A DNA stretch of 64,000 nt from Promethearchaeia archaeon (GTDB taxonomy: Archaea > Asgardarchaeota > Lokiarchaeia > Sigyniarchaeales > SOKP01), in contig JAHQWG010000001.1 of assembly GCA_029856045.1 (NCBI GenBank), forward strand, positions 1 through 64,000, in the 5' to 3' direction. The notes under the pieces are model-generated. The model saw nothing but the letters and a program-made list of their open reading frames with translations. It had not been told where the DNA came from and did no database searches. The position numbers were made by a program, and so were the translations under genes. Shown here one piece after another: positions 20,690 through 39,983 of the stretch. The stretch's first letter is position 1, and each line of letters begins with the position of its first letter.

Positions 20690-21400
20690 TTAAAAATATT
20701 GATTTGGATTAAATATCCTTTTGATATCCATCTCATCAAAATCTCCATTCCAATTTTCTCTTATTATTACCCACTCATCCTTATTTTTATTTGGATTAAT
20801 TACAGAATGTATAGTACCTATTGGAATTTCAAATTTTTTATGTTCCTTTACAAAATAATGGATTTTATTTTTATTAATAATAATTGGGTTACCTCCTAAA
20901 ATCTCCCAGAATTCGTTTCGTTTTTTATGTAGTTGCCATGATATGCCCATATTGGGTTTGATAAAAATCAGATTATATTTTTCATATGTAAACTTGAAAC
21001 TATACCATTTTGGAAGAGTATCGATATATTCATCCGGGATATCATAAAATTTTTTAATTTCCTCCAGATCGATATTAACTTTATCAGAATGTACGTATTT
21101 ATATGGATCATAAATTATTTCGTCAAGAGATGGATCATGGGAGTAAGCTACAGCCAAATCTGAATTAGATATATTATAGATCATGTAGTAAGTTTTAGGG
21201 TTAATTGTCATAGTAAAATATAAAACATCTTTTTCTTCAAATTTCAATAGATCTTCTCCATTTATCACATAACAATTAACTCCTTTTTTTTGCATTATAT
21301 CCATTTGGAGTGTTTCAGGACCATTCTTCCTTAAAATTGAACTGCATCCTCTGGAAATAGTTTCACTAAAGTTCATTTTCATAAATTCAATCAATAACAA
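20690..21400 (-). CDS. Cupin-domain protein (type II phosphomannose-isomerase-like C-terminus)
   Basis: ISWQLHKKRNEFWEI, IPIGTIHSVIN, FDEMDIKR. Confidence 0.7.
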   Translation of the reverse strand: MLLIEFMKMNFSETISRGCSSILRKNGPETLQMDIMQKKGVNCYVINGEDLLKFEEKDVLYFTMTINPKTYYMIYNISNSDLAVAYSHDPSLDEIIYDPYKYVHSDKVNIDLEEIKKFYDIPDEYIDTLPKWYSFKFTYEKYNLIFIKPNMGISWQLHKKRNEFWEILGGNPIIINKNKIHYFVKEHKKFEIPIGTIHSVINPNKNKDEWVIIRENWNGDFDEMDIKRIFNPNQYF

Positions 21401-21421
21401 TTTAATTTTTAATAGTTATTC

Positions 21422-22372
21422 TTAATTCTTTATCTTTTTCATTATTTCTTCATAATAAGGCATTGATTTTTGTGCTCCCTTTCTTGTTACGGCAATTGAA
21501 GCGGCTGCTGTTGCAAACTTGGCTGCTTCTGATATGGTTTTTCCTTTAGAGAGAGCACTTGCTAAACATCCGTTGAAGCAATCGCCAGCTCCAACCGTAT
21601 CAACTGCTTGCACTTTAAATACTGGTATAATTTCAAATTTATCTTTATCCTCATAATAAATTAGAGCACCTTTCTTTCCTAAGGTTGTTATTATTGTTTT
21701 AACACCTAATTTGGTTAAATTTTTAGACGCTTGCTTAATTTTTTCTTCATTAGAGCCAGAAAGTTCTTTTTGAATTGAGAAGGAATGCAATCTTAACAAT
21801 TCTCCTTCATTGGGGATGATAATATCAACTTTCTTCAGTATATCTAATGGAATCGGCTTTAAAGGTGCTGGATTTAATATTTTAATAGCAGTTCCTTGTG
21901 AAGCAATTCTGAATATTGTATCAATAGTCTCAATTGAAATTTCCATTTGAACAATAATTACTCTAGCATTTTTAATTAGGTTAGATTTAATCTTTACCTC
22001 ATTAGGAGTTAATCTAAAGTTAGCTCCAGGAGCAACCCCAATTATATTTTCACCATTAGAATCTATCATAATTAACGCAACTCCACTTGCTTCATTGGAA
22101 TCTCTAAAAATATGACTGGTGTCTATACCTTCCGCTTTCAGACGAGAGAGCATTTGATCTCCAAACGTATCTTTACCAATCTTTCCGATAAAAACAGTCT
22201 TTGCACCAGAGCGAACTGACGCAACCGCTTGATTTGCTCCCTTTCCACCTAAGAATTGCTTATAAACACCCCCAGTTATGGTTTCTCCTGGTTTAGGTAA
22301 ACTTTCTAAATAGACATTTAAGTCCATGTTAGATGAGCCAATAATAAGAACATAATTATTATTCTCCAACAT
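21422..22372 (-). CDS. rbsK: Ribokinase (PfkB family)
   Basis: GSSNMDL, GGKGANQAVA, NPAP, PNEGE, DTVGAGDCF. Confidence 0.93.
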   Translation of the reverse strand: MLENNNYVLIIGSSNMDLNVYLESLPKPGETITGGVYKQFLGGKGANQAVASVRSGAKTVFIGKIGKDTFGDQMLSRLKAEGIDTSHIFRDSNEASGVALIMIDSNGENIIGVAPGANFRLTPNEVKIKSNLIKNARVIIVQMEISIETIDTIFRIASQGTAIKILNPAPLKPIPLDILKKVDIIIPNEGELLRLHSFSIQKELSGSNEEKIKQASKNLTKLGVKTIITTLGKKGALIYYEDKDKFEIIPVFKVQAVDTVGAGDCFNGCLASALSKGKTISEAAKFATAAASIAVTRKGAQKSMPYYEEIMKKIKN

Positions 22373-24422: not shown

Positions 24423-25985
24423 TTAAGCTTTAAAACGAGCATTACCATTCATTATTTTTCGATTAATTATCATATCATTTACCTGCATACCCCCAAGTAA
24501 GCAACCGAATACTCCATGCACAAATTTCGGCTGGAATAATCCCTTTATAGGGGTTCTCATTTTCAAACGAGTTCTACCAAAATTGTCAGTGTATGGTGCC
24601 ATATCAAAAAGTGACCCTGTTGGTGAGCCAGAAAAACGTGCATAAGTAGCAGGTGTGGAAATATCTGTTACCAGAACGTTTTTTCTTAGATCTGGTATAA
24701 GATATTTTTCGACTTTATCTATAAAAAAATCTGCCCATTTCTGTTTCATCTCGTTGTATTTTTCTGGGTCGCTTTTCCGCATTTTCTTCCATTCACCTAA
24801 TGCCATTGGTGTCATATGGATTGTTATATTTGGTTTACTGCCAGTTGTAAGTGAGGGGCATATAACCGCAATATGAAATAGATTGTCAGAAAATCCGATT
24901 TCTCCTGCTTCATAAGCATCAAACAATCGATCGTAAGTGTTTCCTCCCGTAGTGATAATGTTAAATCCACAATCTAATCCTAATCCAGCGAGATCAACAT
25001 TTTCACTTAATCCTAGATTAATATTAAATGCGGAAGTGGACATTTTGACATCATCTATTTTTTGAGCATATTTTTTATCTAACTTTCGAATAACATCCAA
25101 ACCGACCAATTTTTTCATTGAAACCTTAGGGTCGATTGTTGTTACAACATAATCTGCATAGATTTTTTTCCCTCCAGCAATTTCAACTCCCCTTACTTGA
25201 TCATTCTCTACTATTATTTTTTCAACTTTAGTGTTGAGTAATAATTTACCACCCAGATTTAAATATCGTTCCTCCAATTTTTTAGGAAAATCTATAAAAG
25301 GCTCTTTAGTTCGAAATGCACCATCTAAAAGTGAATTCAATGCGGATATAGGAACGAGAGCAGAAACATATTTTGGAGGAAGAGCACTAAAATCAGCAAA
25401 AACATCAAAAATCTCTTTTACTTCAGGTTCAGTTATTCCGAATTGATCAAAATATTCTTTAAAGGTTTTTGAGGCATTTCTAATGATTTTTGGGCATGTA
25501 AACAATAATTTTAGGATTTCTATAAAGGTTGGTTCAATTTTTAACTTGAACAACTCCAAATACATCGCCCTTGAATAATCTAAAAATTTTCTAATTTGCT
25601 TTGCATTTTGTGGGTACTTCTTCATTAACATATTTTTAAAAACCTCTGTTCCGGAAGGGAGTTCAATAACTTTAACTTCATCTGTTTCAGGATTAACCAA
25701 AAAAATACGCATATAATAACCTTTAAAAGCTTTAAACTCTAATTCTAATCCGAAATAATCCACTAATTCAGAAATGTTCGGAAGCATCTGACATGTATCA
25801 AATATAAATCCCTCCCGTTCATATGAAGTGACATAACCACCTGTTTTTGGTTCTTTTTCGATCAGAAGAACAGGTTCTTTCTTAATATTATGATTAAGTG
25901 CCCAAGTGAGAGCGGTGCTTAAACCAGTGATCCCTCCACCAATTACAATTAAAGTTTTTTTATTTTTTTCTGCTTCTTGACTCAT
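24423..25985 (-). CDS. Phytoene desaturase (CrtI)-like FAD-dependent oxidoreductase
   Basis: IGGGITGL, EKEPKTGG, REGFIFD, STPATYARF...GSLF, RTPIKGLF. Confidence 0.85.
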   Translation of the reverse strand: MSQEAEKNKKTLIVIGGGITGLSTALTWALNHNIKKEPVLLIEKEPKTGGYVTSYEREGFIFDTCQMLPNISELVDYFGLELEFKAFKGYYMRIFLVNPETDEVKVIELPSGTEVFKNMLMKKYPQNAKQIRKFLDYSRAMYLELFKLKIEPTFIEILKLLFTCPKIIRNASKTFKEYFDQFGITEPEVKEIFDVFADFSALPPKYVSALVPISALNSLLDGAFRTKEPFIDFPKKLEERYLNLGGKLLLNTKVEKIIVENDQVRGVEIAGGKKIYADYVVTTIDPKVSMKKLVGLDVIRKLDKKYAQKIDDVKMSTSAFNINLGLSENVDLAGLGLDCGFNIITTGGNTYDRLFDAYEAGEIGFSDNLFHIAVICPSLTTGSKPNITIHMTPMALGEWKKMRKSDPEKYNEMKQKWADFFIDKVEKYLIPDLRKNVLVTDISTPATYARFSGSPTGSLFDMAPYTDNFGRTRLKMRTPIKGLFQPKFVHGVFGCLLGGMQVNDMIINRKIMNGNARFKA

Positions 25986-26250
25986 TTTATTCGCTATTCA
26001 TTTAGAATAAAGTATGATAAAAATGTATTTAAAAATATCCATAAAACTATAAAATTAAAAAACACAAAAAAATAGTGTATTTTAATTTTGATAGATAGAA
26101 CCGAATTACATATAATAAGTTTAAAATACAATGTATTTAGTAATAAATTTATGAAGATTGTAGTTGTAGATATTGGAGTATTGGGAATTTTGTGGGCTCA
26201 AAACATCCAAAATCTTAAAATATAAAAAAAAATAGGAGTTATTTGTTAAA

Positions 26251-27558
26251 ATGAATGATCTTAGAAGTAAATTGAAAATTTCTGAGGAGGCATTAAAAGC
26301 TCTAAATGATTTTCTTCTAGATAAGGATAATCTTGTTATTAACGACCTTTTTAAAATTATAGACAAGTATGGTGGGGTTGAAGAGATTAACAAAAAGGCG
26401 GAGGAAACGGGAAAGTTAGAAAATTTAATTCAAAAGTTAGAAAAGAAAAATCCATCATATGTAAAAGATCTCGATTGGTTAATTGAGCAGCGTGATAAAC
26501 AAGCTTTTATTAGTATTCCCGAGTATAGACGGAAGATTCTTGGTGATAAAGCTGAAAAGATGGACTTTGATAATACTTTTGCTGTTACTTTAGAGTTATC
26601 TGCATGTCAGTATTTTCCATTTTTAATTGATATTGCAAAACGAGCTATTGAACATAATTTATTAATGCCTCGCCGGATAATTCGTGTTAGAAAAATGAAA
26701 GAGCAGGAGGAAGATGGAGACCTTTTGGCTATGGCTGCTGCTATGCAAATTATTGGTGCGTCATATGTAGAGACACTTGATACTAAGGGTACAGCTCCAG
26801 GTCCTGATGGATTTCCTGTAAATGTTCATCTTGGTGGCCCTGAAACCATTACCGGTTATTTCGGAGGCGTTGGTCAACCAAATGACTTTGCCTTGAAATG
26901 GGTTGATGAGTATCTCTACTATTATACAAATTATGGAATCAAACAAGTTCTCAACGTAAATCCTGGTACAGTGCTTCTTGGTTATTTTCTTTACAAACTG
27001 GGAATTAATAATGAATTCAAAATTTCAGTCTATATGGGGAACGACAATCCTTATGCTTGTCTTTGGACCTTGATGACAGCAAAGTTATTTGCTCGAGAAG
27101 ATGGTACAAGTCCGTTGATCGGTTTCAATCTTGCAAACTCTGTTAATAACCAAACAATTGAAATGGCGGCATATATTAGGAAACCTTTTGGGTTTGAAGA
27201 TATTGTTCGTTTAGAGCATCACATAGTTGAGACATGGAAAAGCATTGTGAGACAACCATATGATCGTCGAGATGAATTAATTGAACTTGCCAAAAAAGTA
27301 AAGAATGTGAGCGCCAAGCATGAGGGGGGTAATGTCGATGTTGAACAGAAACGAGAGCATCCTTCGGACATTCTTGAATATTTCATGAGCAAAGAGGAGA
27401 TTATGGAAGCAAATTTGTGGGAATCTATGCGAATTAACCATCTTGACCGTAATGATGCAGTAAATGCAACTGCCAGGGCTCTTACTGAGAATGGACTTAC
27501 ATTTCTTGCTGCAAAGAATCTTCATCAACTTAAAAAAATTAGAGGGAAAAATAGATGA
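26251..27558 (+). CDS. Uncharacterised soluble enzyme-like protein (435 aa), translationally coupled to the aldolase-Fae fusion
   Basis: Long ORF, GGAG SD, ATGA stop/start overlap with the next gene; Gly/His/Glu-rich motifs (NVHLGG, GYFGGVGQPN, RLEHH, KHEGG). Confidence 0.8.
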   Translation: MNDLRSKLKISEEALKALNDFLLDKDNLVINDLFKIIDKYGGVEEINKKAEETGKLENLIQKLEKKNPSYVKDLDWLIEQRDKQAFISIPEYRRKILGDKAEKMDFDNTFAVTLELSACQYFPFLIDIAKRAIEHNLLMPRRIIRVRKMKEQEEDGDLLAMAAAMQIIGASYVETLDTKGTAPGPDGFPVNVHLGGPETITGYFGGVGQPNDFALKWVDEYLYYYTNYGIKQVLNVNPGTVLLGYFLYKLGINNEFKISVYMGNDNPYACLWTLMTAKLFAREDGTSPLIGFNLANSVNNQTIEMAAYIRKPFGFEDIVRLEHHIVETWKSIVRQPYDRRDELIELAKKVKNVSAKHEGGNVDVEQKREHPSDILEYFMSKEEIMEANLWESMRINHLDRNDAVNATARALTENGLTFLAAKNLHQLKKIRGKNR

Positions 27559-29057
27559 GTAAAAATAAGGGAAAATTTGATTTCCGTCCTTCTGGGGTAA
27601 TTCCTGCGCTAGTTACACCATTCAATAAGGAGGATGAATCGATTAATGAAGAGAATTTACGCAATCTAGTAGATCATCTGATTGAACAAGGAGTAACAGG
27701 TCTCGTTCCATGTGGCACAACCGGTGAATTCGTGAATATGACGTTTGAAGAGCGACTGAAAGTAATCGAGATTGTTGTGGATGAGGCGAATGGGAGAGTC
27801 CCAGTTATTGCAGGAACAGGAGAATCGGGAACTAAACTCGTCATCGATGCTACTAGGGCAGCTACTGATATTGGTGCAGATGCAGCTATCATAGTTACAC
27901 CTTATTATCTTAAGCCTAAAGCAAAGGGTTTATATGATCATTATTTCACGATAACTGAAAAGACAGATATTCCTCTTGTGTTGTATAATATTCCTCCTTG
28001 CACAGGGGTTAATTTACCTTGGACAGTGGTAGAGGATCTTGCCGATATTGACAATATTGTAGCTATTAAAGATTCAAGTGGTGATTACAAATATTTTTCC
28101 GCATTATTGGAAAAAGTAAGTGATCGAATCTCAGTCATTATTGGATGGGATGAGAATGTCTTGGCAGCGCTGGCTGGTGGAGCTGCAGGGATGATTCTTG
28201 CCTCAGCTAATGTAATTCCAAAGATTTGGCTCGAACTTTATAATCATGTGAAAAACAACCGTCTTGAGGAAGCTCAGGTTCTTCAGAAAAAGATTCAAAA
28301 ATTTACTCGAATGATAGTAAGTTCTGGTGCATTAGGACCTAAAGAGTGTTTGAATATGATGAATATTCCTGTTGGTGTTACTCGACAGCCGGTAATAATG
28401 GGTGATACACTTTCCTATGAGCTTTGGGATGAATTTAGAATAGAATTGGAGAAGTTAGGTTTGCTCAAAAAGAAGGAAATTAAAATTGAAGTTGCCGAGA
28501 AAGAACTTACGAGTCGTTTTTATTCTATTGATATTACTCCTCAAATAATTTCAGACTTTAGTTTAAGGGTTGGTGAATCACTCGTAGGAAATAGAGCCGA
28601 ACTTGCTCATGTAGACCTTCTTATTGGTGATAAGAAAGGTCCTGTTGGTGAAGCATATGCTCGTTCCCTAACACATCCTGCGAAAGGACGGGAAGGTCTT
28701 CAAGTGATTCTTGAACCTAACATGCAAGTCAAACCGGCAACAGTAATGATTCCTACAGTTAAGGTCCAGTCGCTACGTCAAGCAAGTCTCGTTTATGGAC
28801 CTGCACAAGCAGCCGTAGGGAAAGCGGTAATGAAATGTGTGGAAGATGGTATTCTTCCTAAAGATGCTTCAGAAGATTTAGTGATTATTGCAAATGTTTT
28901 TGTGCATCCTAGTGCAAGTAGTCGCAAAAGAATTTTTATTAACAACTATAAAGCAACCCGAAACGCTATTCGAAAGGCGATGGAAGGTTTACCAACAGCA
29001 GATGATGGTATAAAGAATGCAGAGAGTGCTCGACACCCATTTAGAAATGATCCATAA
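27555..29057 (+). CDS. Fusion: DapA/NAL-family class I aldolase + formaldehyde-activating enzyme (Fae)
   Basis: N-terminal GTTGE, TPYY, YNIP, IKDSSG (Schiff-base Lys); from about 28565 [39 protein letters not shown] = Fae. Confidence 0.92.
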
Positions 29058-29139: not shown

Positions 29140-32100
29140 TTAATTTATTATTTTTTTTCTTTTCTTCCGAATTCTTATTACAACAATAGATATAACGACT
29201 CCACTAGTAATTCCTCCAGCAATCAGTACGATAAATAGCATCGGAAAATCTCCTTCTCCGTGTGAACTAGCACCTACATATGCCTGAAAACAAGGATCAT
29301 TATATACCTCGTAACCATCCCATTTTGAAAATCCAACACTCATAAAATAAAGTTCTGCATCGAAATTGAAAGATGTACATGATTGTTCACTGTCGCTCAT
29401 AAAAGCACCTGAAAAGGTACTTATAGGTGTCGTAAAAACTGCCACTTTTAGATTTTTTGATGTATTAAAACTCCACGTATAGGGTGATCCTAATTCTGCT
29501 TTAGCAAAAGTATTTTCAGTATCGTTTAATACCATAGAAAATGATTCTGACATTGTCTGATTATCATTATTTATTGTTTGATTATTGTCATCAATTATTT
29601 GCGTTTCTTCGCCATTATCGTATTTATCTTCATAATACATACTAGCTTTTCCACTAAACACATAATAAGTTAAACTAAGTGAGTAGTTCTCAAGATTATT
29701 CATGCCCCCGGGACAATGAGGAGTCCAATCTCCAACCCATTGGTCAATTTTAAACTCTGTGTTATAATATAAGCCATTAACAGTATCATTTCCTTTGAAA
29801 TGTACCATAAAATCTAATTTATCAATCGTAACTTCTACTGGTTTATCTGCAAATCCCTTGAAATCTGATCCATCGACAACACCGTCATACCAATCCCACA
29901 TTGACCTAAAATTCTGATTATTGAAGGGATAAGTTGTCCCATTAATAGTAGAGAATTTTACTCCCCAATCAATATTAGCAGCACCTATGAAAGTATAAAC
30001 ATCAACTGATTTAGTTATGGGTTCATCGTATATCCAATATTCTCTTGTTTCTTGATAATGATCGGTAGCATTGGAAATATCAGGTGTAATGAATGAAACG
30101 TTATCCACATTTGATGGGACAAAGAAATGTGTTATTTCAGAATCCAATCCAATATCCATGAATCCATCATTATCACCATCTTTATAGAGCATCATACCAG
30201 CGTATTCATATCGGTTTGTAACATAAGCTGATTTAATTTCTTGCTTACTGCTATCCGCATAGAAATCCGCCCAGTAATTTTGGTCTAGGTTAAATTCTAT
30301 CCATGTCCATTCATGACTATTATCATTTACCCAATCCCAGTTGTATTTCTCCGCTTCAGCAATAACATCTTCCCAAGTACGGTTCTTTACCATACGGTCA
30401 AGTTCCCAATAACCTGGACGTCCAAAGCCGTTCTCATCAAGAACCGTGTTAATTATTCCATCCATTTCAGCGGAAGTCAACGTCGAGTATGTACCATCTG
30501 CTTTAAGCCAAGTATACTCTTCTGACCATTCATAGGTCCAATTCATATTATTGATACCCATTGAAGAATGTATTTGCATTTCATTACCAAAAACAGATGT
30601 TATTGGATTATATTCGATTTCTAACTCTAAAACATTTCTTGTATGTGAAAATGTATCTTTAGATTCATATGTTCGATATATATAATACTGATCATCTGTA
30701 GTGGACAAATCTCCATCAAGATCAAGGGCACCTTCATCTGTAGTTGTAAACATTCTATATCCCCACATGTTATTTGTTGGAGTCCCAAAAATTAAATTAT
30801 AAGTATCCTTAATTTGTAAGATATCTTGTCTTTGTAAAAACAAACCATATTGATGACCCCAAATTGTTTGATATAACTGTATAAAGCTGTTCTCCATTTG
30901 AACAAGATAATTTTCTGAATCAATCGTAATATTGTATATATTTTTCCAGCTATAAGCTTCCTTTGTCGTCCAATCATAATTAGGGTTCTTGATCACTTTC
31001 CAAGTTCCAGGTACGATTTCAGCTTCAAGAATTGCCATATAATTATTACGCATGAAATTTTCTATGCCCCCCCATTCGTTATAAAATGTAAAATTATTGT
31101 AGAAATAAGTATCGCTTCTAAATGTAAAATTTATTGTGTTTTGACCATCAACTGACCAAAAATCTGGCTCGCTCCAGTTAATTGGGTGGGAGTAATACAT
31201 TCCACTCGTTTCATTATAAAGATTCAAATAATATTCTGTGTTTTGAGGTATATATTCTAAAATAGCTTGATATTCATCAACCAATTCGATAAAAGCATTA
31301 TCCGGGATCTCTAGAAAACTACCATTTAATAAAAGTAGGATTTTCTTTGAATGGTTCCAATATTCCCAACAATTAATTGACAGGATATCCTTCATCCAGA
31401 TTTCGTCATATCCAGTAACATGATTATAAGTTTTTACTGTTAAATTGAAAATTGGAATATAATAGCTTACAACGACATTGATTTGAGTACCGTTTATCAG
31501 TGTTAAGAAAAAGCTTCCGTTTTCAGCATAAAAGTTATCAATTCCAAAATGTTCTAAATCATATTTCTGAGTTACAAGTATTTGCTCTGATAAAACTTCT
31601 ATAGCACCTTCCTTTTTGAATGAGTTATAAGAATGAACACCATAAGGTATAGATTCACCGATAACAGTAAGGTTAAAATTCGGTGTTCCATTAATCATTG
31701 TAACCAAACCTTTATGAATTTCTAAATCTTTAATGATTTCGCTACCTATAACGATATCTCCATTAATTGGTTCTTGATTGCTAAATGTTAAATTCTCCAT
31801 CAAGTATAACTCACCATTAATATTTACAAAATATAAAACAGGAATGACACCATAATGCACCCAATCTCCTTCAGATAAACCGCTAACTGTCGCTTCCATT
31901 TCATAGCGTTCATTTACATTAGCGTTTGGATAAGGTAAAATATACTCTTGATTATCTTTAATCGTATAATAATATGGTCTGATAATATTATCCCAGTTAT
32001 GATGATATCCATTGTATCTGAGAGGTATTAAAATCTCTGATTCATTATAATTTACTCTATATGCTTCCATATAATCCGAGAGATAATGCTCTACTCCATC

Positions 32101-35100
32101 AATAATAACCTTGTTGTTGGTTCCATATTGTTCATTCCAATCACTTGTAACCACAGTATATTTGGTGCCGTCAGTAGCAATTATATACTGTTCTCCATTA
32201 AACCATTGAATCCCTTGTGAAGATATTTCCAATCGAGTAATTCCATCTAAAACAACAAAATATACGCGGTTCTCCCAAGCTCGAGCTTCTTCTGAAAGAG
32301 TTAATTGATCAACATTTTCAATTGTTCTAAGATGGGTGTTTTCAGCAAGCCAATAATTATTAGGATCTCCATAACTATGTATAATATCTCCTCCAGTTTC
32401 ATTCCATTCGGTATATTCCGATATATAATGAAGAGTTCCTTCAATATCAACAAAATAATAAACCGAATCATACACTGCATCATCCCAGTATTGACTTGGT
32501 TTATTCATAAATGTTTGGAATGTGTCAATCGTACTACTATCATTTAAGGTCACTGTATAAATATTAACTTTCTCCCCTTCATAAAATATAATCCTCTCAT
32601 CGGTTGTGGCATCTTTATAATAGAAAAATTCCTGGTTAGTTTGCCAATCCCAATCGTAGTACATTATTAACTCATGAATTTTATTATCCCCATCGGTATA
32701 CTGACTGACATCTAAGGGTCTGGTTTCACCATCAATTTCCACATATGGCATTTCATACATTATATATGAAGAACCATTGATTACTACAAAATTTCCCAAC
32801 TTTGGATCCTCAATATAATTTTTTTCTCCACCATTTTCATAGTAAAAGATATCTTTATTGATCCACTGGAGTGATTTGTACTCACCCCAAGGCTTATCAT
32901 AATCATATCCCCATGCTTCTTTAAGAAATTCAACATCCCAATTATAAGAAGCTTCTGGTGCTCCTTCTAGGATGGTGATATTTAAATCTATAAATGTCCC
33001 CTGAGATGATGTATAATTTGATACATCATTAATTACTAGAAACTCTATTTCTGAAGAAATTTCAGTTTCTTTACCTCTCCAAGGAAGCCAACCTTTTACC
33101 CATTCGCCTTCTTCTTGATTGAATTGATATTCCTGCCAATGCCAATCTGTCACTTCACACCATTCCCAAGAATCATAAGTTCCATTAACCCATATATCGA
33201 TCCCAAGAGTTTCATCATATTCCCAATGCCATCCTTCCTTCTCTACTTTAACCCAGTCTTGGTAAGTGGAATTCTCCCAAACTTGTTTATTAGTACGATT
33301 ATAAGCTTCAAATGTAGTTTCCTTTGACTTAAGATTATAGGTGACATAAATTTCTATCTCTGACCACATATCTATTTCAGTAGTCCATTTTGATTCCCAA
33401 CAATTAAGTCGAAAGCCCAATCCATCAATCGAATTGAAAAAATCACTTGAACCTTCTAATTTATTGCGAATTACGAATGGTTCACCTGGTTTCATGTTAT
33501 AGAATGGTTTATCCCATTTAACATTGGAATTATCTACAATCCATGTATTAACTTGAGGCTGATTGACCCCAATCTGACCACTTGTCATATCGCTATTCCA
33601 ATGTTCGTTTCCATCAACATCAATTAATCCAGTGTCATACCAAATTTGAGTTTCTGATGCTAACAGAATATCCGTGAAATATCCTGTAAATTCAACAATA
33701 GTACGTTGTTCTGTATCTAAATATTTATTAGTACTATATAATTTGAAGAAATTTTCAATTTTATTGCTTATATTCAAATTATTTAAATTAAACACTCTTG
33801 CCCCTCCCATATATGGATCATTTGGATTTTCAGCCCAATATTCAAAACCGACTTTTAAGGAAAACTCATCGGTATTTTCATTGTAAATCAAAAAGAATTG
33901 ATTACTCACCCATTCTTGCCATAAATTTTCAACCCAAACAGGACTTCCACTACTCCAATCCCATCCAGATCTATTTATCATCTGAGAACTTTGCTGCCAA
34001 CAATCTATCCATGTTTTTACTTCATAAAATCCATAAACTTGTTGAGTTGTTGTGAGATTTACGGTAGAATCATAGAGATATGTTCCAGAACTTTCATTGT
34101 AAACCCATCCTCCCATATGAGTCACTTTCTCTTCATGCCATCCTTCAACAATGGAAGTGTTTGTATATCCATTAGGAATGTTAAGTTTTACAAAAATAAA
34201 TCCTGGTGAAATGCTCTTAGATATATTAAAACGAAAAGTCAATAGTTCTTCGATACCTACAGTGTTTGTTTCCTTACCAGCTGAGTCTATCGTTTTTACT
34301 CCCCATTTGCCACCAAAACCCCACCAAGGATCAAATTCTGTAGGCTCTCCAACACCAATCCATTTTTCGGGGCTATCATTTGATTCAAAATCCCATGAAG
34401 AAAAGCCCCACATGTTAATTCTTTCACCTCTATTTGAATATACGCCCATTTCCACCCTATAAGTTCCTAAATAGACCCGTTCGTTGAATTTTCCGTTCCA
34501 TTTAACTTCCCAAGTTTTAGTGAAGTTATTATAAATAGCTTCACATTGATTCCAATTAATGGTATAAAAACTTTCAGGTTCTTCCCATTTCTGAGCAGAA
34601 TTTGGTTCTTCGGCTGACATTTTTAATCTTATTGGCAAAGATTCATATTCATTAGTTTCACTACTAGAAAGTGTACCCTCAAAACCCTCACCCATAGTAT
34701 TATTCTGTTGCCATGAATGAACTTCCCATTGCCAACCTTCCTCATATACAATTTCTTCTGAAGAGCTATAATACCAATCCCAAATTATGCTTGGATGGAC
34801 AACATAAAACATTAGGTTTAAATCTGCCGTAAGAAGTGCATCTCCAAAAAAATTCGGATTATTATTTGTTTCATCATTATATTTATCCATATGCCAGTGA
34901 ATTTCAACAGCTCCTAGACTCCTATTGAATTTACCTTTAAAAATTGCTTCAGGTATAAATCCACGTACTATAAATTCTTCATTAATATTTACGTACTCAG
35001 CGTTTTGATTGATTTCTGTTCCATTTAAATGTTCTATTCGAAATTGTGCTTTGGGTCCAAATTCCCAAGATGAGTCGTCCCAAGTCCAATTATTAGTATA

Positions 35101-35238
35101 TGTTTCATCTATAATATCCCAATTCAACTTAGACTCCGTAATTCCAGGACTTTGAGCAAGAGAAAAACTAGGTAGAAAGTAACTTATTAAAAGCACTGTG
35201 CAAAAAATACTTCCCTTTGTGTATTTATTTAATTTCAT
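29140..35238 (-). CDS. Giant Trp/Tyr/Asn-rich extracellular protein with signal peptide and C-terminal TM anchor (2032 aa)
   Basis: N-terminal signal (..SFSLAQ), C-terminal hydrophobic helix followed by RIRKKRKK, many NxS/T sequons, DLDGD and DGDNDG motifs. Confidence 0.85.
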   Translation of the reverse strand: MKLNKYTKGSIFCTVLLISYFLPSFSLAQSPGITESKLNWDIIDETYTNNWTWDDSSWEFGPKAQFRIEHLNGTEINQNAEYVNINEEFIVRGFIPEAIFKGKFNRSLGAVEIHWHMDKYNDETNNNPNFFGDALLTADLNLMFYVVHPSIIWDWYYSSSEEIVYEEGWQWEVHSWQQNNTMGEGFEGTLSSSETNEYESLPIRLKMSAEEPNSAQKWEEPESFYTINWNQCEAIYNNFTKTWEVKWNGKFNERVYLGTYRVEMGVYSNRGERINMWGFSSWDFESNDSPEKWIGVGEPTEFDPWWGFGGKWGVKTIDSAGKETNTVGIEELLTFRFNISKSISPGFIFVKLNIPNGYTNTSIVEGWHEEKVTHMGGWVYNESSGTYLYDSTVNLTTTQQVYGFYEVKTWIDCWQQSSQMINRSGWDWSSGSPVWVENLWQEWVSNQFFLIYNENTDEFSLKVGFEYWAENPNDPYMGGARVFNLNNLNISNKIENFFKLYSTNKYLDTEQRTIVEFTGYFTDILLASETQIWYDTGLIDVDGNEHWNSDMTSGQIGVNQPQVNTWIVDNSNVKWDKPFYNMKPGEPFVIRNKLEGSSDFFNSIDGLGFRLNCWESKWTTEIDMWSEIEIYVTYNLKSKETTFEAYNRTNKQVWENSTYQDWVKVEKEGWHWEYDETLGIDIWVNGTYDSWEWCEVTDWHWQEYQFNQEEGEWVKGWLPWRGKETEISSEIEFLVINDVSNYTSSQGTFIDLNITILEGAPEASYNWDVEFLKEAWGYDYDKPWGEYKSLQWINKDIFYYENGGEKNYIEDPKLGNFVVINGSSYIMYEMPYVEIDGETRPLDVSQYTDGDNKIHELIMYYDWDWQTNQEFFYYKDATTDERIIFYEGEKVNIYTVTLNDSSTIDTFQTFMNKPSQYWDDAVYDSVYYFVDIEGTLHYISEYTEWNETGGDIIHSYGDPNNYWLAENTHLRTIENVDQLTLSEEARAWENRVYFVVLDGITRLEISSQGIQWFNGEQYIIATDGTKYTVVTSDWNEQYGTNNKVIIDGVEHYLSDYMEAYRVNYNESEILIPLRYNGYHHNWDNIIRPYYYTIKDNQEYILPYPNANVNERYEMEATVSGLSEGDWVHYGVIPVLYFVNINGELYLMENLTFSNQEPINGDIVIGSEIIKDLEIHKGLVTMINGTPNFNLTVIGESIPYGVHSYNSFKKEGAIEVLSEQILVTQKYDLEHFGIDNFYAENGSFFLTLINGTQINVVVSYYIPIFNLTVKTYNHVTGYDEIWMKDILSINCWEYWNHSKKILLLLNGSFLEIPDNAFIELVDEYQAILEYIPQNTEYYLNLYNETSGMYYSHPINWSEPDFWSVDGQNTINFTFRSDTYFYNNFTFYNEWGGIENFMRNNYMAILEAEIVPGTWKVIKNPNYDWTTKEAYSWKNIYNITIDSENYLVQMENSFIQLYQTIWGHQYGLFLQRQDILQIKDTYNLIFGTPTNNMWGYRMFTTTDEGALDLDGDLSTTDDQYYIYRTYESKDTFSHTRNVLELEIEYNPITSVFGNEMQIHSSMGINNMNWTYEWSEEYTWLKADGTYSTLTSAEMDGIINTVLDENGFGRPGYWELDRMVKNRTWEDVIAEAEKYNWDWVNDNSHEWTWIEFNLDQNYWADFYADSSKQEIKSAYVTNRYEYAGMMLYKDGDNDGFMDIGLDSEITHFFVPSNVDNVSFITPDISNATDHYQETREYWIYDEPITKSVDVYTFIGAANIDWGVKFSTINGTTYPFNNQNFRSMWDWYDGVVDGSDFKGFADKPVEVTIDKLDFMVHFKGNDTVNGLYYNTEFKIDQWVGDWTPHCPGGMNNLENYSLSLTYYVFSGKASMYYEDKYDNGEETQIIDDNNQTINNDNQTMSESFSMVLNDTENTFAKAELGSPYTWSFNTSKNLKVAVFTTPISTFSGAFMSDSEQSCTSFNFDAELYFMSVGFSKWDGYEVYNDPCFQAYVGASSHGEGDFPMLFIVLIAGGITSGVVISIVVIRIRKKRKKIIN

Positions 35239-35601: not shown

Positions 35602-37038
35602 TTATTCTTTTAATATTGGATTTCGGGCTGCTAGGACTGCGTCAAGACGTTTTACTGGAGTGTTGAGAGGAGCATTTTTAAGAAGCTCGGGATTTGTTTT
35701 TGCCTCATTATATATATTATTCATCACATCAATGAAATTATCCAATGAAGCTTTTGACTCAGTTTCGGTCGGTTCAATCATCATAGCACCTTTTACTATT
35801 AATGGAAAATAAATTGTTGGGGCGTATAATCCATAATCAAGAATACGTTTTGCAATATCTTCAGTAGTTACATTATTTTCTATTCCCCGGTCTGAAAGTA
35901 CAAATTCATGTTGACAGATTCGATCGTATGGAAGGTGGTATTTTTCTTTTAAAAAAACTCGCAAATAATTTGCGTTTAGAACAGAAATTTGACCCACGCG
36001 TTTTAGACCTTCGGCACCTAAGGCGAGAATATATGCATAAGCTCGTATAATAACTCCAAAATTACCCCAAAAGCACTTAATACGACCAATAGAATTGTTG
36101 GTTTTTTCTCGACATACAAATCCCTGTTCTGTGGCGATAATGGAGGGGTCAGGGAGATATGAAATGAGTTCTTTAGTAACTCCCACAGGTCCAGAACCGG
36201 GTCCGCCCCCACCATGTGGGGTTGAAAAAGTTTTATGTAAATTCAGATGGACGATATCAAATCCCATATCCTTCGGACGGCAGATACCTAACATGGGATT
36301 CAAATTAGCGCCATCATAGTAGCATAAACCTCCATATTTATGTATGATATTCGTGATATCCTTAATTTGACGGTCAAATATACCCAAAGTATTGGGATTA
36401 GTTAACATTATACCCGCTACATCGCCCTGCTGCATTGCAAATTCAATATGATCAAGTGGAACTTCTCCCATATCATTTGAGCGTACTTCGATTATTGAAA
36501 AACCTGCCATTTTTGCAGATGATGGGTTAGTTCCATGGGCGGAATCTGGTACCAAAATTTTATTTTTTTTAAGATTTTTATTCTCGAAATATTTTTTCAT
36601 TATTAAAATTCCGGTTAATTCTCCATGAGCTCCCGCAGCAGGTTGAAAGGTAAATCCATCCATACCGGTAATTTCTCTGAGCATCTCTGAGAGATGGTGC
36701 ATTAGTTCAAGAGCTCCTTGATTTTCTTCTTGAAGAGGATGTATTTGGGAAAAAGCTGGAAGTCGAGCGATCACCTCATTAATCTTTGGATTATATTTCA
36801 TAGTGCACGAACCAAGCGGATAAATTCCTGAATCTATCCCATAATTTCTCCTACTCAACTCGGTATAATGGCGGACAATTTCTACCTCTGGAATATCGGG
36901 TAAGGGTAAATCTTCTCGTTGAAAAAATGAGGGTATTATTTCGAGTAAATCAACTTTATCTATATCCATTTCAGGAATGAAATTATGTTGAGAGCGTTTA
37001 GTACCTTTGTTAAAAATCAAAGTCAGGTTTGAAGTCAT
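35602..37038 (-). CDS. gcvPB: Glycine dehydrogenase subunit 2 (P protein beta)
   Basis: YPLGSCTMKYNPK, SAHGTNP, HLNLHKTFSTPHGGGGPG. Confidence 0.97.
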   Translation of the reverse strand: MTSNLTLIFNKGTKRSQHNFIPEMDIDKVDLLEIIPSFFQREDLPLPDIPEVEIVRHYTELSRRNYGIDSGIYPLGSCTMKYNPKINEVIARLPAFSQIHPLQEENQGALELMHHLSEMLREITGMDGFTFQPAAGAHGELTGILIMKKYFENKNLKKNKILVPDSAHGTNPSSAKMAGFSIIEVRSNDMGEVPLDHIEFAMQQGDVAGIMLTNPNTLGIFDRQIKDITNIIHKYGGLCYYDGANLNPMLGICRPKDMGFDIVHLNLHKTFSTPHGGGGPGSGPVGVTKELISYLPDPSIIATEQGFVCREKTNNSIGRIKCFWGNFGVIIRAYAYILALGAEGLKRVGQISVLNANYLRVFLKEKYHLPYDRICQHEFVLSDRGIENNVTTEDIAKRILDYGLYAPTIYFPLIVKGAMMIEPTETESKASLDNFIDVMNNIYNEAKTNPELLKNAPLNTPVKRLDAVLAARNPILKE

Positions 37039-37041
37039 TGT

Positions 37042-38382
37042 TTAATTCCCTCCTATGTTTTTGTTAGAAGCTTTTTCAGCTGCATGAATGAATTTTTCTA
37101 TATCCTCCCGAGAATTGCTCTCAGTCACACATACAAGTATAATATCTTTCATATCAGGAAAATACTTCGATATCATTAGAGGTGGAAGCAGATTTTCCTG
37201 TTTGCATTGTTCAATTAGTTCATGAACATTTGGACATTTAACTAAAAATTCATTATATGTTGGTTTCTTATTTAATATTTGATAGCCTGGAATGGTTGCT
37301 AATTTTTGCTTAACATAATGAGATTTTTGAAAATTTTGAAGAGCAATCTCTTGAAGACCTGTTTTTCCTAATGAAACGAGATAAATTAACGAGGCTAAAG
37401 CACACAGTGCTTGGTTCGTACAAATATTTGAAGTGGCTTTCTCACGACGTATATGTTGTTCGCGGGTTTGTAAAGTTAATATGAATCCCTCCCGTTCTCC
37501 ATTGATTTCATTAGTTTTACCAATCAACCGACCCGGCATTTTACGCAAATATTTTTGCTTAGATGCAAAAATTCCTAACCCTGGACCACCAAATGATGGT
37601 GAAATACCAAAAGATTGTCCTTCAGCAACAAAAATATCAATATCGGATTTTCCTGGAGGTTTTAACACGCCTAGGCAAGTAGGATCGGTCATTACTTGAA
37701 TAATTAAACATTTGGGAGCTTTATCTCTAATTTTTTGAACTAATTCTGTGATATTTTCGATGCCACCAAAAAAATTTGGACTCTGGAATAGAACAGCTGC
37801 AACACTTTCATCTAATTTTGAGATGAGTGCATCCTCCATAACAACTTCAAAATGGATGTCTTGCCCCCAGCAATAGGTCTTAACAACTTCTACATATTCC
37901 GGATGAATTCCTTCAAGTAAAATAATTTTTTTTTTCTTTGCTGCTACAGTTGCCATAATTGCAGCTTCAGCTAGAGCAGTGGAGCCGTCATACATACTCG
38001 CATTAGCAACATCCATCTGGGTAAGCCGTGTAATTGCTGTTTGATACTCATAAATGGCTTGTAAATACCCTTGACTGGCTTCTGCTTGGTAGGGGGTATA
38101 GGCAGTATAAAATCCCGAAAGGTTGATTACGAAGTCCACCAATGAAGGAATATAATGGTAATAGCAACCGGCTCCTAGAAAAGAACTTGAATAAATTTTA
38201 TTTTTACGTGAAAGTTCTTCTAATCGCCGTAAAAGATCTGGTTCAGACAAACCATGAGGTAGGTTTAATTTTTTTAATAATAAATCGGCTGGAATATCTT
38301 GAAATAACTCCTCTAAGGAATTAATACCGATGGAAGTTAACATCTCGGTAATTGTTTCTTTATCATGAAGTATAAAATCCAT
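37042..38382 (-). CDS. gcvPA: Glycine dehydrogenase subunit 1 (P protein alpha)
   Basis: YTAYTPYQAEASQG, ANASMYDG, TREQHIRREKATSNICTNQ. Confidence 0.97.
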   Translation of the reverse strand: MDFILHDKETITEMLTSIGINSLEELFQDIPADLLLKKLNLPHGLSEPDLLRRLEELSRKNKIYSSSFLGAGCYYHYIPSLVDFVINLSGFYTAYTPYQAEASQGYLQAIYEYQTAITRLTQMDVANASMYDGSTALAEAAIMATVAAKKKKIILLEGIHPEYVEVVKTYCWGQDIHFEVVMEDALISKLDESVAAVLFQSPNFFGGIENITELVQKIRDKAPKCLIIQVMTDPTCLGVLKPPGKSDIDIFVAEGQSFGISPSFGGPGLGIFASKQKYLRKMPGRLIGKTNEINGEREGFILTLQTREQHIRREKATSNICTNQALCALASLIYLVSLGKTGLQEIALQNFQKSHYVKQKLATIPGYQILNKKPTYNEFLVKCPNVHELIEQCKQENLLPPLMISKYFPDMKDIILVCVTESNSREDIEKFIHAAEKASNKNIGGN

Positions 38383-38442
38383 TCTATCGATCTCATTTAG
38401 ATGGTAATAGTTGGATTAATCTAATAAATAAAAAAAATACTA

Positions 38443-38838
38443 TTAATCTTCCTCTTTTTCGATCATTTCTTGATATATTTCAACCGAGAGAAGATTTTTT
38501 ATTTCATCTGGGTTTGATATTTTAATTTTCATTATCCAGCCCTCCCCGTACGGTGAAGAATTCACAAATGCTGGATTATCGGCGATGTTTTCATTTATCT
38601 CAATAACTTCTCCCGTTAATGGGAAAAATAATTCACTTACCGCTTTAACGGACTCAATTTCACCAGCAACACTGCCTTTTTCTAACACTACTCCTATTGC
38701 AGGAAGTTCAACATATACAATATCTCCAAGTTTATGTTGTGCGTAGTCAGAAATTCCAACAGTTGCCATATCTCCATCCATTCTAACCCACTCGTGAGTT
38801 GGTGCATATTTTAAATCTGCAGGAAATTTAAGATCCAT
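38443..38838 (-). CDS. gcvH: Glycine cleavage system H protein
   Basis: THEW, LGDIVYVELP, IESVKA (lipoyl Lys), PYGEGW. Confidence 0.97.
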   Translation of the reverse strand: MDLKFPADLKYAPTHEWVRMDGDMATVGISDYAQHKLGDIVYVELPAIGVVLEKGSVAGEIESVKAVSELFFPLTGEVIEINENIADNPAFVNSSPYGEGWIMKIKISNPDEIKNLLSVEIYQEMIEKEED

Positions 38839-38876
38839 CCTTATTCACATTAATCTTGATTTTTATTCAAATTTTA

Positions 38877-39983
38877 TTATATATTACGATAAAATGGTGT
38901 GGGAACTACTTTTGCTTTAAGAAGTTTATTCCGAATTTCAACGTCAAATTCCGTCCCGATGGAGCTATATTGTATTTCAACGAGAGCTAAGCCAATTGTC
39001 TTTTTAAGCGTTGGTGAGAATCCCCCAGAAGTTACATATCCGATTTCTACCCCATTCTTAAATAATTTATAGTTTTCTCTAATGATTCCCCTATCCAAGA
39101 GATTTAATCCAACAAGAATTCGTGATGTCCCCTCTTTTTTTTGGCGAATAAGAACTTCCTTACCTATAAAATCAATTCCTTCTTTTGGTTTTACAAGCCA
39201 GTTAAGCCCCGCTTCAATCGGGGTTATTGAATTAGTAAGTTCATGACCATACAAGCAGTAACAAGCTTCTAAACGCAAAGAATCACGCGCCCCTAAACCT
39301 GCAGCACCAGCTCCTGTTTTTATAAAAGCATTCCAAATTGTTTCAGCGTATTTATTTTCAAAAGAAATTTCAAAACCTCTTTCACCAGTGTAACCAGTTC
39401 GGGCTATGAATGCAGGAATATCACATAAATTACAAAAAACAAAATAAAACCGATTCAAAGTGGATAAATCTGTATCAACGAGTGGCGCAATTAAGTCATC
39501 AGATTTCGGCCCTTGAAATGCTAATCGACATCTTTCTTTCGAGACATCCTTAACTTTTACTCGAAAGTTTCCTATATGCTTATTAATCCATTGAAAATCT
39601 TTCTCTACATTACTTGCGTTGACAATCATCCGAAATCGTTCCGGACTCTCCTCATAGTAAACTAAATCGTCTACTACAGTCCCATTTTCATAACACATGC
39701 AAGAATATTGTCCTTTTGACTTTTCTAATAATTTTAAATCATTCACCATCAAATATTGAAGGAATGGTATCACATCTGGACCTTCAAAAATAAATTCTCC
39801 CATATGAGAAATATCAAAAACACCTGCGAGCGTTCGAACGGTTTCATGTTCTTTTAAAATGCTTTCATATTGGACGGGCATCAACCATCCAGCAAAATTC
39901 ACCATTCGCGCCCCTAATTTTACATGAGTTTCATATAAGGGGGTTTTTATTTCATTTAGGTCTTCTTTAGTAATAAATTCCAC
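38877..39983 (-). CDS. gcvT: Glycine cleavage system aminomethyltransferase T
   Basis: [27 protein letters not shown]. Confidence 0.97.

Follow-up and report, generated by a model that had tools for sequence, protein, structure and literature searches.

The window studied here is a stretch of 64,000 nucleotides from an Asgard archaeon (Promethearchaeia archaeon, assembly GCA_029856045.1, contig JAHQWG010000001.1, positions 1 to 64,000 of the forward strand). It carries a gene for a 435-residue orphan protein, here called X, which is present as a single copy in the source genome and is followed directly by a gene for a fusion protein, DHDPS-Fae, joining a class I aldolase of the DHDPS family to a formaldehyde-activating enzyme (Fae). 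The reading frame of X is open throughout and, as the initial annotation of this DNA had stated, overlaps the fusion gene by an ATGA stop/start; these and the other features of the locus are collected in Table 1. Both parts of the fusion protein are complete domains (DHDPS, PF00701, 1e-74, residues 12–281; Fae, PF08714, 6.5e-57, residues 339–496) and the fae model TIGR03126 scores 194.5 bits against it, above the cut-off. The ATGA overlap is peculiar to the source genome, in which X is extended by seven residues at its C-terminus: a length of 426–428 residues is usual among the relatives listed, and at the loci that were read the gap to the fusion gene is 6–25 nt. The pair had also been described as less AT-rich than its neighbours, which is true in part. 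The GC content is 0.39 over positions 27000–28999 compared with 0.26–0.36 in the flanks, but the rise is modest, leaving out the first half of X (0.31) and covering only its second half together with the fusion gene; the gcvP gene in the same window also reaches 0.385.

Comparison of sequences would make X the founding member of a very strongly conserved, uncharacterised family of predicted enzymes that is not specific to Asgard archaea. Searches of Pfam, NCBIfam and the PDB sequences with X, including a profile search, gave nothing above noise (top Pfam matches at noise level, with DUF6261 at 17 bits against a cut-off of 27 bits; no NCBIfam match; E of 0.4 or more for phmmer and profile searches of the PDB), and the earlier statement that no family could be assigned is therefore upheld. 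A search of a protein atlas built on language-model features returned no usable match, and no description of the family was found in the copies of Pfam, NCBIfam and the PDB that were searched or in the literature searched. A word-indexed search gave at least 8000 homologues; the best 120 listed are 77–99% identical to X and any name given to them is ‘hypothetical’. An exhaustive library clustered at 50% identity holds only a handful of full-length X clusters (63%, 51% and 41% identity), indicating that the family is tight and without a detectable outgroup. Representatives of 451–499 residues look like chimeric or frameshifted calls and no fused forms of 763 residues or more were found. Asgard X and the copy from the cyanobacterium Calothrix share 64% identity, some 100 columns of the alignment being invariant, and identity between Asgard archaea, Chloroflexi and cyanobacteria lies at 64–70%. 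Invariant or nearly so in archaeal and bacterial relatives are D177, K179, G180, N191, H193, R320, E322, H323, H324, K356, H357, E358, G359 and P371, while the invariant polar residues are E115, S117, R142, R147, D177, N191, H193, N235, K257, S259, D265, N266, N293, R320, E322, H324, K356, H357 and E358. All five of the enzyme-like motifs picked out in the initial annotation (ETLDTKGT, NVHLGG, RLEHH, SAKHEGG and EHPSD) occur in X and coincide with columns that vary little or not at all.

An AlphaFold2 model of X built on an alignment of 19 sequences (predicted local distance difference test score, pLDDT, 87.4; predicted template-modelling score, pTM, 0.87) consists of an N-terminal helical domain, which the fold searches barely probed, and a (beta/alpha)8 barrel. 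A separate model of the barrel alone reproduces the fold and also the low confidence of a glycine-rich loop, residues 180–183 and 185–209 of which have a pLDDT below 50 in both models. This loop, although one of the best conserved parts of X, with the invariant residues N191, H193, G202, G205, G206, G208, P210 and N211, is thus poorly modelled; it probably serves as a mobile lid over the active site or in binding a phosphate or cofactor. Conserved polar residues lie within or just past the modelled strands (E115, S117, R142, R147, D177, N235, K257, S259, N293, E322, H324, K356, H357 and E358), and in the models the invariant residues at the strand ends would suit the active site expected for a small anionic, hydroxylated substrate. 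With both models the top Foldseek matches were class II aldolases (fructose-bisphosphate (FBP) and tagatose aldolases, YdjI and SqiA; E of 1e-5 to 2e-4), but at template-modelling (TM) scores of 0.43–0.5 these are weak and generic, many unrelated barrels scoring alike.

Four family assignments were considered and found no support in sequence. For the class II FBP aldolase family there is no PF01116 match even at E ≤ 1 and the hhalign probability is 0.1; at strand 3 X reads V-E-T-L-D-T-K-G, keeping only the Asp of the H-x-D-H motif. X has no match to PF01136 (peptidase U32), and of its two cysteines, C118 and C269, neither is invariant among relatives; nor has it a Pfam match to the BKACE/DUF849 family. 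The possibility that X is a paralogous subunit of PanB (PF02548) was likewise unsupported, with an hhalign probability of 0.1 against the PanB proteins encoded beside it. On the models we conclude that X belongs to a new barrel family with a common fold, and the alternative raised by the initial annotation, that its fold would prove to be that of a known unrelated enzyme, did not emerge from structure prediction or the fold searches. Prediction of a complex between X and the fusion protein gave a score of 0.00 against a mark of 0.32, which speaks neither for nor against binding.

Table 1. Features of the X locus, with positions in the window and residue numbers of X
Feature	Positions	Strand	Remarks
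Shine-Dalgarno-like AGGAG	26234–26238	+	12 nt 5′ of the X start codon; read from sequence
X, 435-aa orphan protein (P0001)	26251–27558	+	Open reading frame; homologues unnamed or ‘hypothetical’
N-terminal all-helical domain, residues 1–105	26251–26565	+	Predicted by AlphaFold2; helices 2–103, pLDDT 87–98
(beta/alpha)8 barrel, residues 108–426	26572–27528	+	Predicted; full-length and barrel-only models, fold searches, invariant columns
Glycine-rich, invariant-rich loop, residues 178–211, core NVHLGGPETITGYFGG	26782–26883	+	Between modelled strands 3 and 4
GAGGG, ribosome-binding site for the fusion gene	27542–27546	+	Inside the 3′ end of X, 8 nt before the fusion ATG
ATGA stop/start overlap of X and the fusion gene	27555–27558	+	TGA 27556–27558, ATG 27555–27557
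Fusion of DHDPS-family class I aldolase and Fae (P0002), 500 aa	27555–29057	+	

Presence and absence in Asgard archaea were counted over 301 genomes, sampled evenly from the phylum and arranged by family (f-numbers). X is present in 45 of 68 genomes of f1, 5 of 7 of f2, 21 of 28 of f7, 70 of 76 of f9, 19 of 21 of f24 and 10 of 11 of f29; in this sample it was not found in f14 (0/19), f15 (0/3), f16 (0/11), f5, f10, f21 or f22. Within f1 the two genes go together in presence and absence: the fusion occurs in 46 of 68 genomes, and about 18 of those listed as lacking X or the fusion are listed as lacking the other as well. In f9 (fusion in 72/76) X and the fusion are both present and not adjacent, the fusion often being a tandem pair. 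The fusion was further found in 15/19 genomes of f14, 3/3 of f15 and 9/11 of f29, and in none of f7 (0/28), f24 (0/21) or f16 (0/11). Homoserine dehydrogenase (HomDH) has the reverse distribution, with 3/76 in f9, 0/19 in f14, 0/3 in f15 and 0/11 in f29 compared with 20/28 in f7, 17/21 in f24 and 7/11 in f16, and nearly all f1 genomes in which the X–fusion pair was not found carry it. Across Asgard families the fusion and HomDH are complementary, being nearly mutually exclusive, and this fits a fusion protein that makes or cleaves 4-hydroxy-2-oxobutanoate (HOB), the oxo acid of homoserine. Whichever route feeds the HOB/homoserine node, X accompanies it, yet it is not required by the fusion.

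X is not confined to archaea. A pattern scan that took a single genome for each GTDB species confirmed relatives in at least 585 species. The best 80 of these loci, ranked by likeness to the Calothrix copy, were kept; they are mostly from Chloroflexota (Anaerolineae) and cyanobacteria. Carriers that are not metagenome-assembled genomes include Chroococcidiopsis sp. FACHB-1243 and Leptolyngbya sp. JSC-1. Two contigs predicted to be viral also carry X at about 50% identity (L016:8001-9158 and L110:174-1439), one a 41-kb VirSorter category-3 contig and the other a 101-kb IMG/VR contig, on which most of the small reading frames around it lack a Pfam annotation; in these contigs X may serve as an auxiliary metabolic gene.

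When the reading frames of 97 X loci were clustered and the recurrent clusters annotated, the constant partner of X was an enzyme that makes or breaks the C3–CH2OH bond of a 2-oxo acid with a one-carbon unit at the formaldehyde level. DHDPS-Fae lies directly 3′ of X in f1, in f29 and on contigs labelled Hodarchaeota, and in 52 of the 97 loci, mostly in Chloroflexi, the gene at −1 on the strand of X is panB, which stands at −2 in six more. The PanB encoded beside X scores above the TIGR00222 cut-off, as a true PanB. The next commonest neighbours are enzymes that interconvert oxo acids and amino acids, followed by aldehyde oxidisers, either aldehyde:ferredoxin oxidoreductase (AFOR) or aldehyde dehydrogenase (ALDH). 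The linkage that had been looked for, to genes for aldolases and for formaldehyde or one-carbon enzymes, thus exists and recurs, with DHDPS-Fae, stand-alone DHDPS and PanB, and so does the suggested linkage to homoserine genes: in f7 and f24 the order is X, a class I aminotransferase (+1), HomDH and AFOR, and this HomDH (415 bits against a cut-off of 373 bits) is the sole HomDH match in those genomes. At L006:8607-12759, L007 and L011, which represent these two families, HomDH, an aminotransferase like aspartate aminotransferase and a tungsten-type AFOR share one operon, and the AFOR might link aspartate with its semialdehyde in both directions, with no need of aspartate kinase and aspartate-semialdehyde dehydrogenase. 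In f9 X is preceded by a GNAT gene and a RibU-like S-component of an energy-coupling factor (ECF) transporter. Divergent from this operon in about 20 genomes (e.g. L009:9604-11106 (+)) is a ThrC-like–PadR fusion, which scores above the thrC cut-off, has the PadR DNA-binding domain at its C-terminus and may be a sensor-regulator derived from an enzyme.

In bacteria the flanks are more varied. At 15 Chloroflexi loci an ELFV-type amino-acid dehydrogenase with CBS domains lies at +1 of X, and FdhD, Fhs and FolD recur 5′ on the opposite strand, divergent from panB-X (L067 and relatives); at L037, L064 and L085 the genes are AcsD, RACo, AcsE, panB and X. Other recurrent flanks in Chloroflexi are AsnC with tyrosine phenol-lyase, CoA-transferase subunits and ALDH (+1 or +2). 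In these two groups of loci panB is embedded in Wood–Ljungdahl and one-carbon clusters, and one genome (G302) has three panB copies. Eight cyanobacterial loci have a dehydrogenase of short-chain dehydrogenase/reductase (SDR) type, Kbl (640 bits against a cut-off of 493 bits) and X, an order like that of tdh-kbl, and close to X in cyanobacteria are aminotransferases and a dioxygenase of PF10014, a family which includes hydroxylases of free amino acids. An SDR also lies 5′ of X in f7; it is only 27% identical to the cyanobacterial Tdh-like SDR over the Rossmann part, and an SDR as a conserved neighbour common to both groups was rejected for this reason. The Calothrix locus has a thiamine pyrophosphate (TPP) enzyme, ApbA, an ELFV-type dehydrogenase, a stand-alone DHDPS and X. 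In the divergent clade (41% identity) the order is X, IlvD/Edd, a protein of metallo-beta-lactamase fold, Dak1 and Dak2, with an IclR regulator in the flanks and, at L022, an ABC transporter. The metagenome-derived locus L021 has panB, FGGY and X facing a stand-alone DHDPS, AFOR and a UxaA-like gene, and L015 has panB, X, a major facilitator superfamily transporter, GntR, two PfkB kinases, a sugar isomerase-like barrel and ROK.

The window itself holds further genes around X and the fusion gene, all those described here being on the reverse strand. Directly 3′ of the fusion gene a reading frame of 2032 residues (29140–35238) has no Pfam match at E ≤ 0.001. Beyond it, about 6.5 kb from the fusion gene, lies a complete glycine cleavage cluster (35602–39983: gcvPB, gcvPA, a 131-residue reading frame where gcvH would be expected, and gcvT), which is a further source or sink of methylene carriers. 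On the 5′ side of X (20690–22372 and 24423–25985) are genes for a cupin (like mannose-6-phosphate isomerase), a PfkB sugar kinase and a protein resembling FAD amine oxidases or phytoene desaturases; PfkB kinases adjoin X in the high-GC locus L015 as well.

Gene inventories were used to ask which known enzymes X or its partner might stand in for. In the source genome, which is 100% complete, HomDH (PF00742), PanB (PF02548) and canonical ThrB were not found, so that homoserine and ketopantoate must come by non-canonical routes or by uptake; a ThrC-like gene is present (C35:52910-53941), as is an ApbA-type ketopantoate reductase gene beside that for phosphopantothenate synthetase (C27:245295-247515). 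PanB was not found elsewhere in the genus either. Replacement of PanB as a general rule was ruled out, as PanB occurs in 236 of the 301 Asgard genomes, including most of those with X and the fusion. Neither HomDH nor canonical ThrB was found in most of the sampled Asgard genomes, ThrB exceeding its cut-off in only 17 of 301, but there is no support for X as an analogue of this homoserine kinase, since f14, f15, f21 and f22 lack both. Substitution for threonine synthase was ruled out by ThrC-like genes in 282 of 301. Among 30 X-bearing Chloroflexi, PanC is present in 24, which rules out its replacement by X, and was not found in six, one of them a complete chromosome; in the two of these six that were checked panB-X is retained, which means that pantothenate synthesis alone does not account for the pair. 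ApbA was present in all genomes checked. G302 has its canonical panB-apbA-panC cluster at another site, the panB next to X being an additional copy. X itself has no match to the MetF model PF02219, and replacement of MetF was also ruled out, PF02219 having at least two matches per genome in five of five X-bearing Chloroflexi and two in the source genome.

We infer the enzyme activity, substrate and chemistry of X from its fold, conservation, distribution and gene neighbourhoods, and the reading that we prefer, although we hold it tentatively and at somewhat less than even chances, is that X would be a lyase or isomerase that enolises the 4-hydroxy-2-oxo acid handled by its one-carbon partner. 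X would then catalyse one step of a short pathway in which a small 2-oxo acid gains or loses a hydroxymethyl unit at C3. The partner in Asgard archaea would be DHDPS-Fae, passing formaldehyde to or from methylene-tetrahydromethanopterin (methylene-H4MPT), and in bacteria PanB, which depends on methylene-tetrahydrofolate (methylene-THF). X would bind the resulting 4-hydroxy-2-oxo acid, HOB or a close analogue, and with metal- and/or base-assisted enolisation at C3 would convert it by elimination, addition or isomerisation to another C4 oxo acid or an aldehyde, which neighbouring enzymes might then aminate (aminotransferase, ELFV-type dehydrogenase) or oxidise (AFOR, ALDH). The best Foldseek neighbours, the class II aldolases, work by metal-enolate chemistry. 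A more specific form of this idea seems to us improbable, namely that X and an enzyme hydroxymethylating C3 (H4MPT-linked DHDPS-Fae in Asgard archaea, THF-linked PanB in Chloroflexi) constitute a natural HOB pathway that connects carrier-bound one-carbon units with C4 amino acids, X carrying out an undescribed conversion of HOB. Such a pathway would be nature's counterpart to the engineered homoserine cycle. The candidate conversions would be to 3-hydroxy-2-oxobutanoate, which has the threonine skeleton, or elimination followed by addition of sulfide to give the oxo acid of homocysteine. Literature on the fusion, on a natural HOB pathway and on PanB paralogues was searched and nothing specific was found. 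The initial annotation had X making or consuming the aldolase substrate, for instance as a dehydratase, isomerase or mutase that yields a 2-keto-3-deoxy-tetronate (HOB), and suggested that the two genes would then define a C1/C4 pathway. The linkage to the aldolase agrees with this and recurs, but the particular reaction stays a proposal and the pathway is not self-contained, as each gene occurs without the other.

Several observations weigh against X as an enolising enzyme on the product of its partner. The fusion is present without X in f14 and f15, where X is thus dispensable for its function, and X is present without the fusion in f7 and f24. In bacteria the known acceptor of PanB is 2-oxoisovalerate and pyruvate is a poor substrate, so that HOB may not be the bacterial intermediate at all; moreover, HomDH is present in 28 of the 30 X-bearing Chloroflexi, which rules out X as a HomDH substitute in bacteria and means that the module there does not substitute for a homoserine supply. 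The alignment of the X barrel with seven class II aldolases from X-bearing genomes, which gave the hhalign probability quoted above, revealed no likeness. Finally, some X loci have a sugar-acid context (IlvD/Edd, UxaA-like, Dak, PfkB, FGGY) and the cyanobacterial loci a threonine context (tdh-kbl).

The threonine context leads to a different possibility, unlikely in our view though deserving attention, that X acts on homoserine or threonine itself, either interconverting the skeletons or splitting threonine into glycine and acetaldehyde. The eight cyanobacterial loci can be read as a threonine-to-glycine operon, X shares an operon with HomDH in f7 and f24, the ThrC-like–PadR gene diverges from the X operon of f9, AFOR or ALDH neighbours could take acetaldehyde, and canonical ThrB is rare in Asgard genomes. 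The known enzymes for these reactions depend on pyridoxal phosphate (PLP), however, and PLP barrels of fold type III carry a Lys at the end of strand 1; X has no Lys there and no PLP barrel was among its fold matches. In addition, X and ThrB show no clean complementarity, with four families lacking both, and the immediate adjacency of X to PanB or DHDPS-Fae would be left unexplained. X might instead be a divergent aldolase or lyase, dependent on metal, whose substrates are sugar acids or ketose phosphates (perhaps branched, or bearing a hydroxymethyl group) and which releases formaldehyde or a small aldehyde for Fae, PanB, AFOR or ALDH. The class II aldolases at the top of the Foldseek lists for two models point this way, as do the sugar genes of the divergent clade (IlvD/Edd, Dak1, Dak2, IclR and, at L022, the ABC transporter), of L015 (PfkB kinases, sugar isomerase-like barrel, ROK) and of L021 (FGGY, UxaA-like, DHDPS, AFOR), and the many invariant Asn and Arg residues are as for binding of a polyol, carboxylate or phosphate. 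Yet X has neither sequence nor profile likeness to PF01116, its counterpart of the H-x-D-H zinc motif is L-D-T-K, the TM scores are low, and most contexts consist of amino-acid, oxo-acid and one-carbon genes rather than sugar genes, which makes this reading rather improbable.

The PanB neighbours raise the question of whether X has ketopantoate or pantoate as its substrate and so takes part in the biosynthesis of pantoate and coenzyme A, with DHDPS-Fae forming ketopantoate in Asgard archaea that lack PanB. The PanB beside X is a true PanB by its score, the source genome has the ApbA-type reductase and phosphopantothenate synthetase side by side with no PanB found, and near X in bacteria there occur ApbA, IlvD/Edd, a TPP enzyme and an ELFV-type dehydrogenase. 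We nevertheless regard this as very unlikely, given that PanB persists in most Asgard genomes with X and the fusion, that G302 keeps its panB-apbA-panC cluster apart from X with the adjacent panB as an extra copy, that panB-X is retained in the two PanC-less Chloroflexi checked while PanC itself is not replaced in the other 24, and that ApbA is present throughout the genomes checked. Least credible of all, and in our judgement hardly to be expected, is that X is an enzyme of the one-carbon carrier, such as a reductase of methylene-THF or methylene-H4MPT, or some other barrel that binds pterins. Its partners Fae and PanB do use methylene-pterins, and some Chloroflexi have panB-X among FdhD, Fhs and FolD or AcsD, RACo and AcsE, but MetF is already present in the five X-bearing Chloroflexi tested and in the source genome, and the fold matches are no better than those to many unrelated barrels.

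Whatever its reaction, X is by its model an orphan barrel enzyme with a fold of a known kind. Being present in at least 585 species, 64–70% identical across three lineages and without a Pfam family, solved relative or name in the records listed, it marks a sizeable blind spot in metabolic annotation. Its position beside enzymes of formaldehyde-level one-carbon chemistry, and in some anaerobes beside Wood–Ljungdahl genes, points to undescribed chemistry between one-carbon metabolism and that of aspartate, homoserine and threonine. As the family has cultured carriers it is directly testable. If the HOB pathway were real, reconstructions of Asgard amino-acid and one-carbon metabolism would change, and chemistry that a review (PMC8879981) describes only as an engineered pathway would occur in nature.

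Among characterised systems the class II aldolases (FBP, tagatose-bisphosphate, YdjI; PF01116) are among those that resemble X, sharing the (beta/alpha)8 barrel and being the nearest Foldseek neighbours of two models. Their catalytic loop is often disordered in crystals, and the glycine-rich loop of X is likewise modelled with low confidence. Zinc is bound in these enzymes by His residues including those of H-x-D-H at the end of strand 3; X lacks these His ligands and has an extra helical domain of 105 residues. The barrels of peptidase U32 type (UbiU/UbiV, RlhA, TrhP; PDB 5d88) include UbiU/UbiV, which carry an Fe–S site, and as X has two Cys only, neither invariant, a site of that type cannot form. 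The BKACE/DUF849 (Kce) enzymes (PDB 2y7d, 3c6c, 3chv, 3lot) are zinc-dependent barrels that act on amino and oxo acids, and CoA-transferase and thiolase genes do neighbour X in some Chloroflexi, but the H-x-H metal motif of their strand 1 is not found in X, whose strand 1 reads TLELS. For the partner gene, rather than for X, a precedent is Fae-Hps (H4MPT hydro-lyase/3-hexulose-6-phosphate synthase, NF009833), in which Fae is joined to an aldolase-type barrel that releases or uses formaldehyde; Hps is a barrel of OMPDC type, and we know of no X-like gene that accompanies Fae-Hps. In terms of pathway there is a likeness to the HOB aldolase and HOB aminotransferase steps of the engineered homoserine cycle, which runs from pyruvate and formaldehyde through HOB, homoserine and threonine to glycine and acetaldehyde and was built from promiscuous Escherichia coli enzymes, HOB being termed a non-native metabolite (PMC8879981, reviewing He et al.). 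That synthetic cycle has no X-like enzyme, yet the intermediates proposed here are the same and genes for most of its steps adjoin X in one lineage or another.

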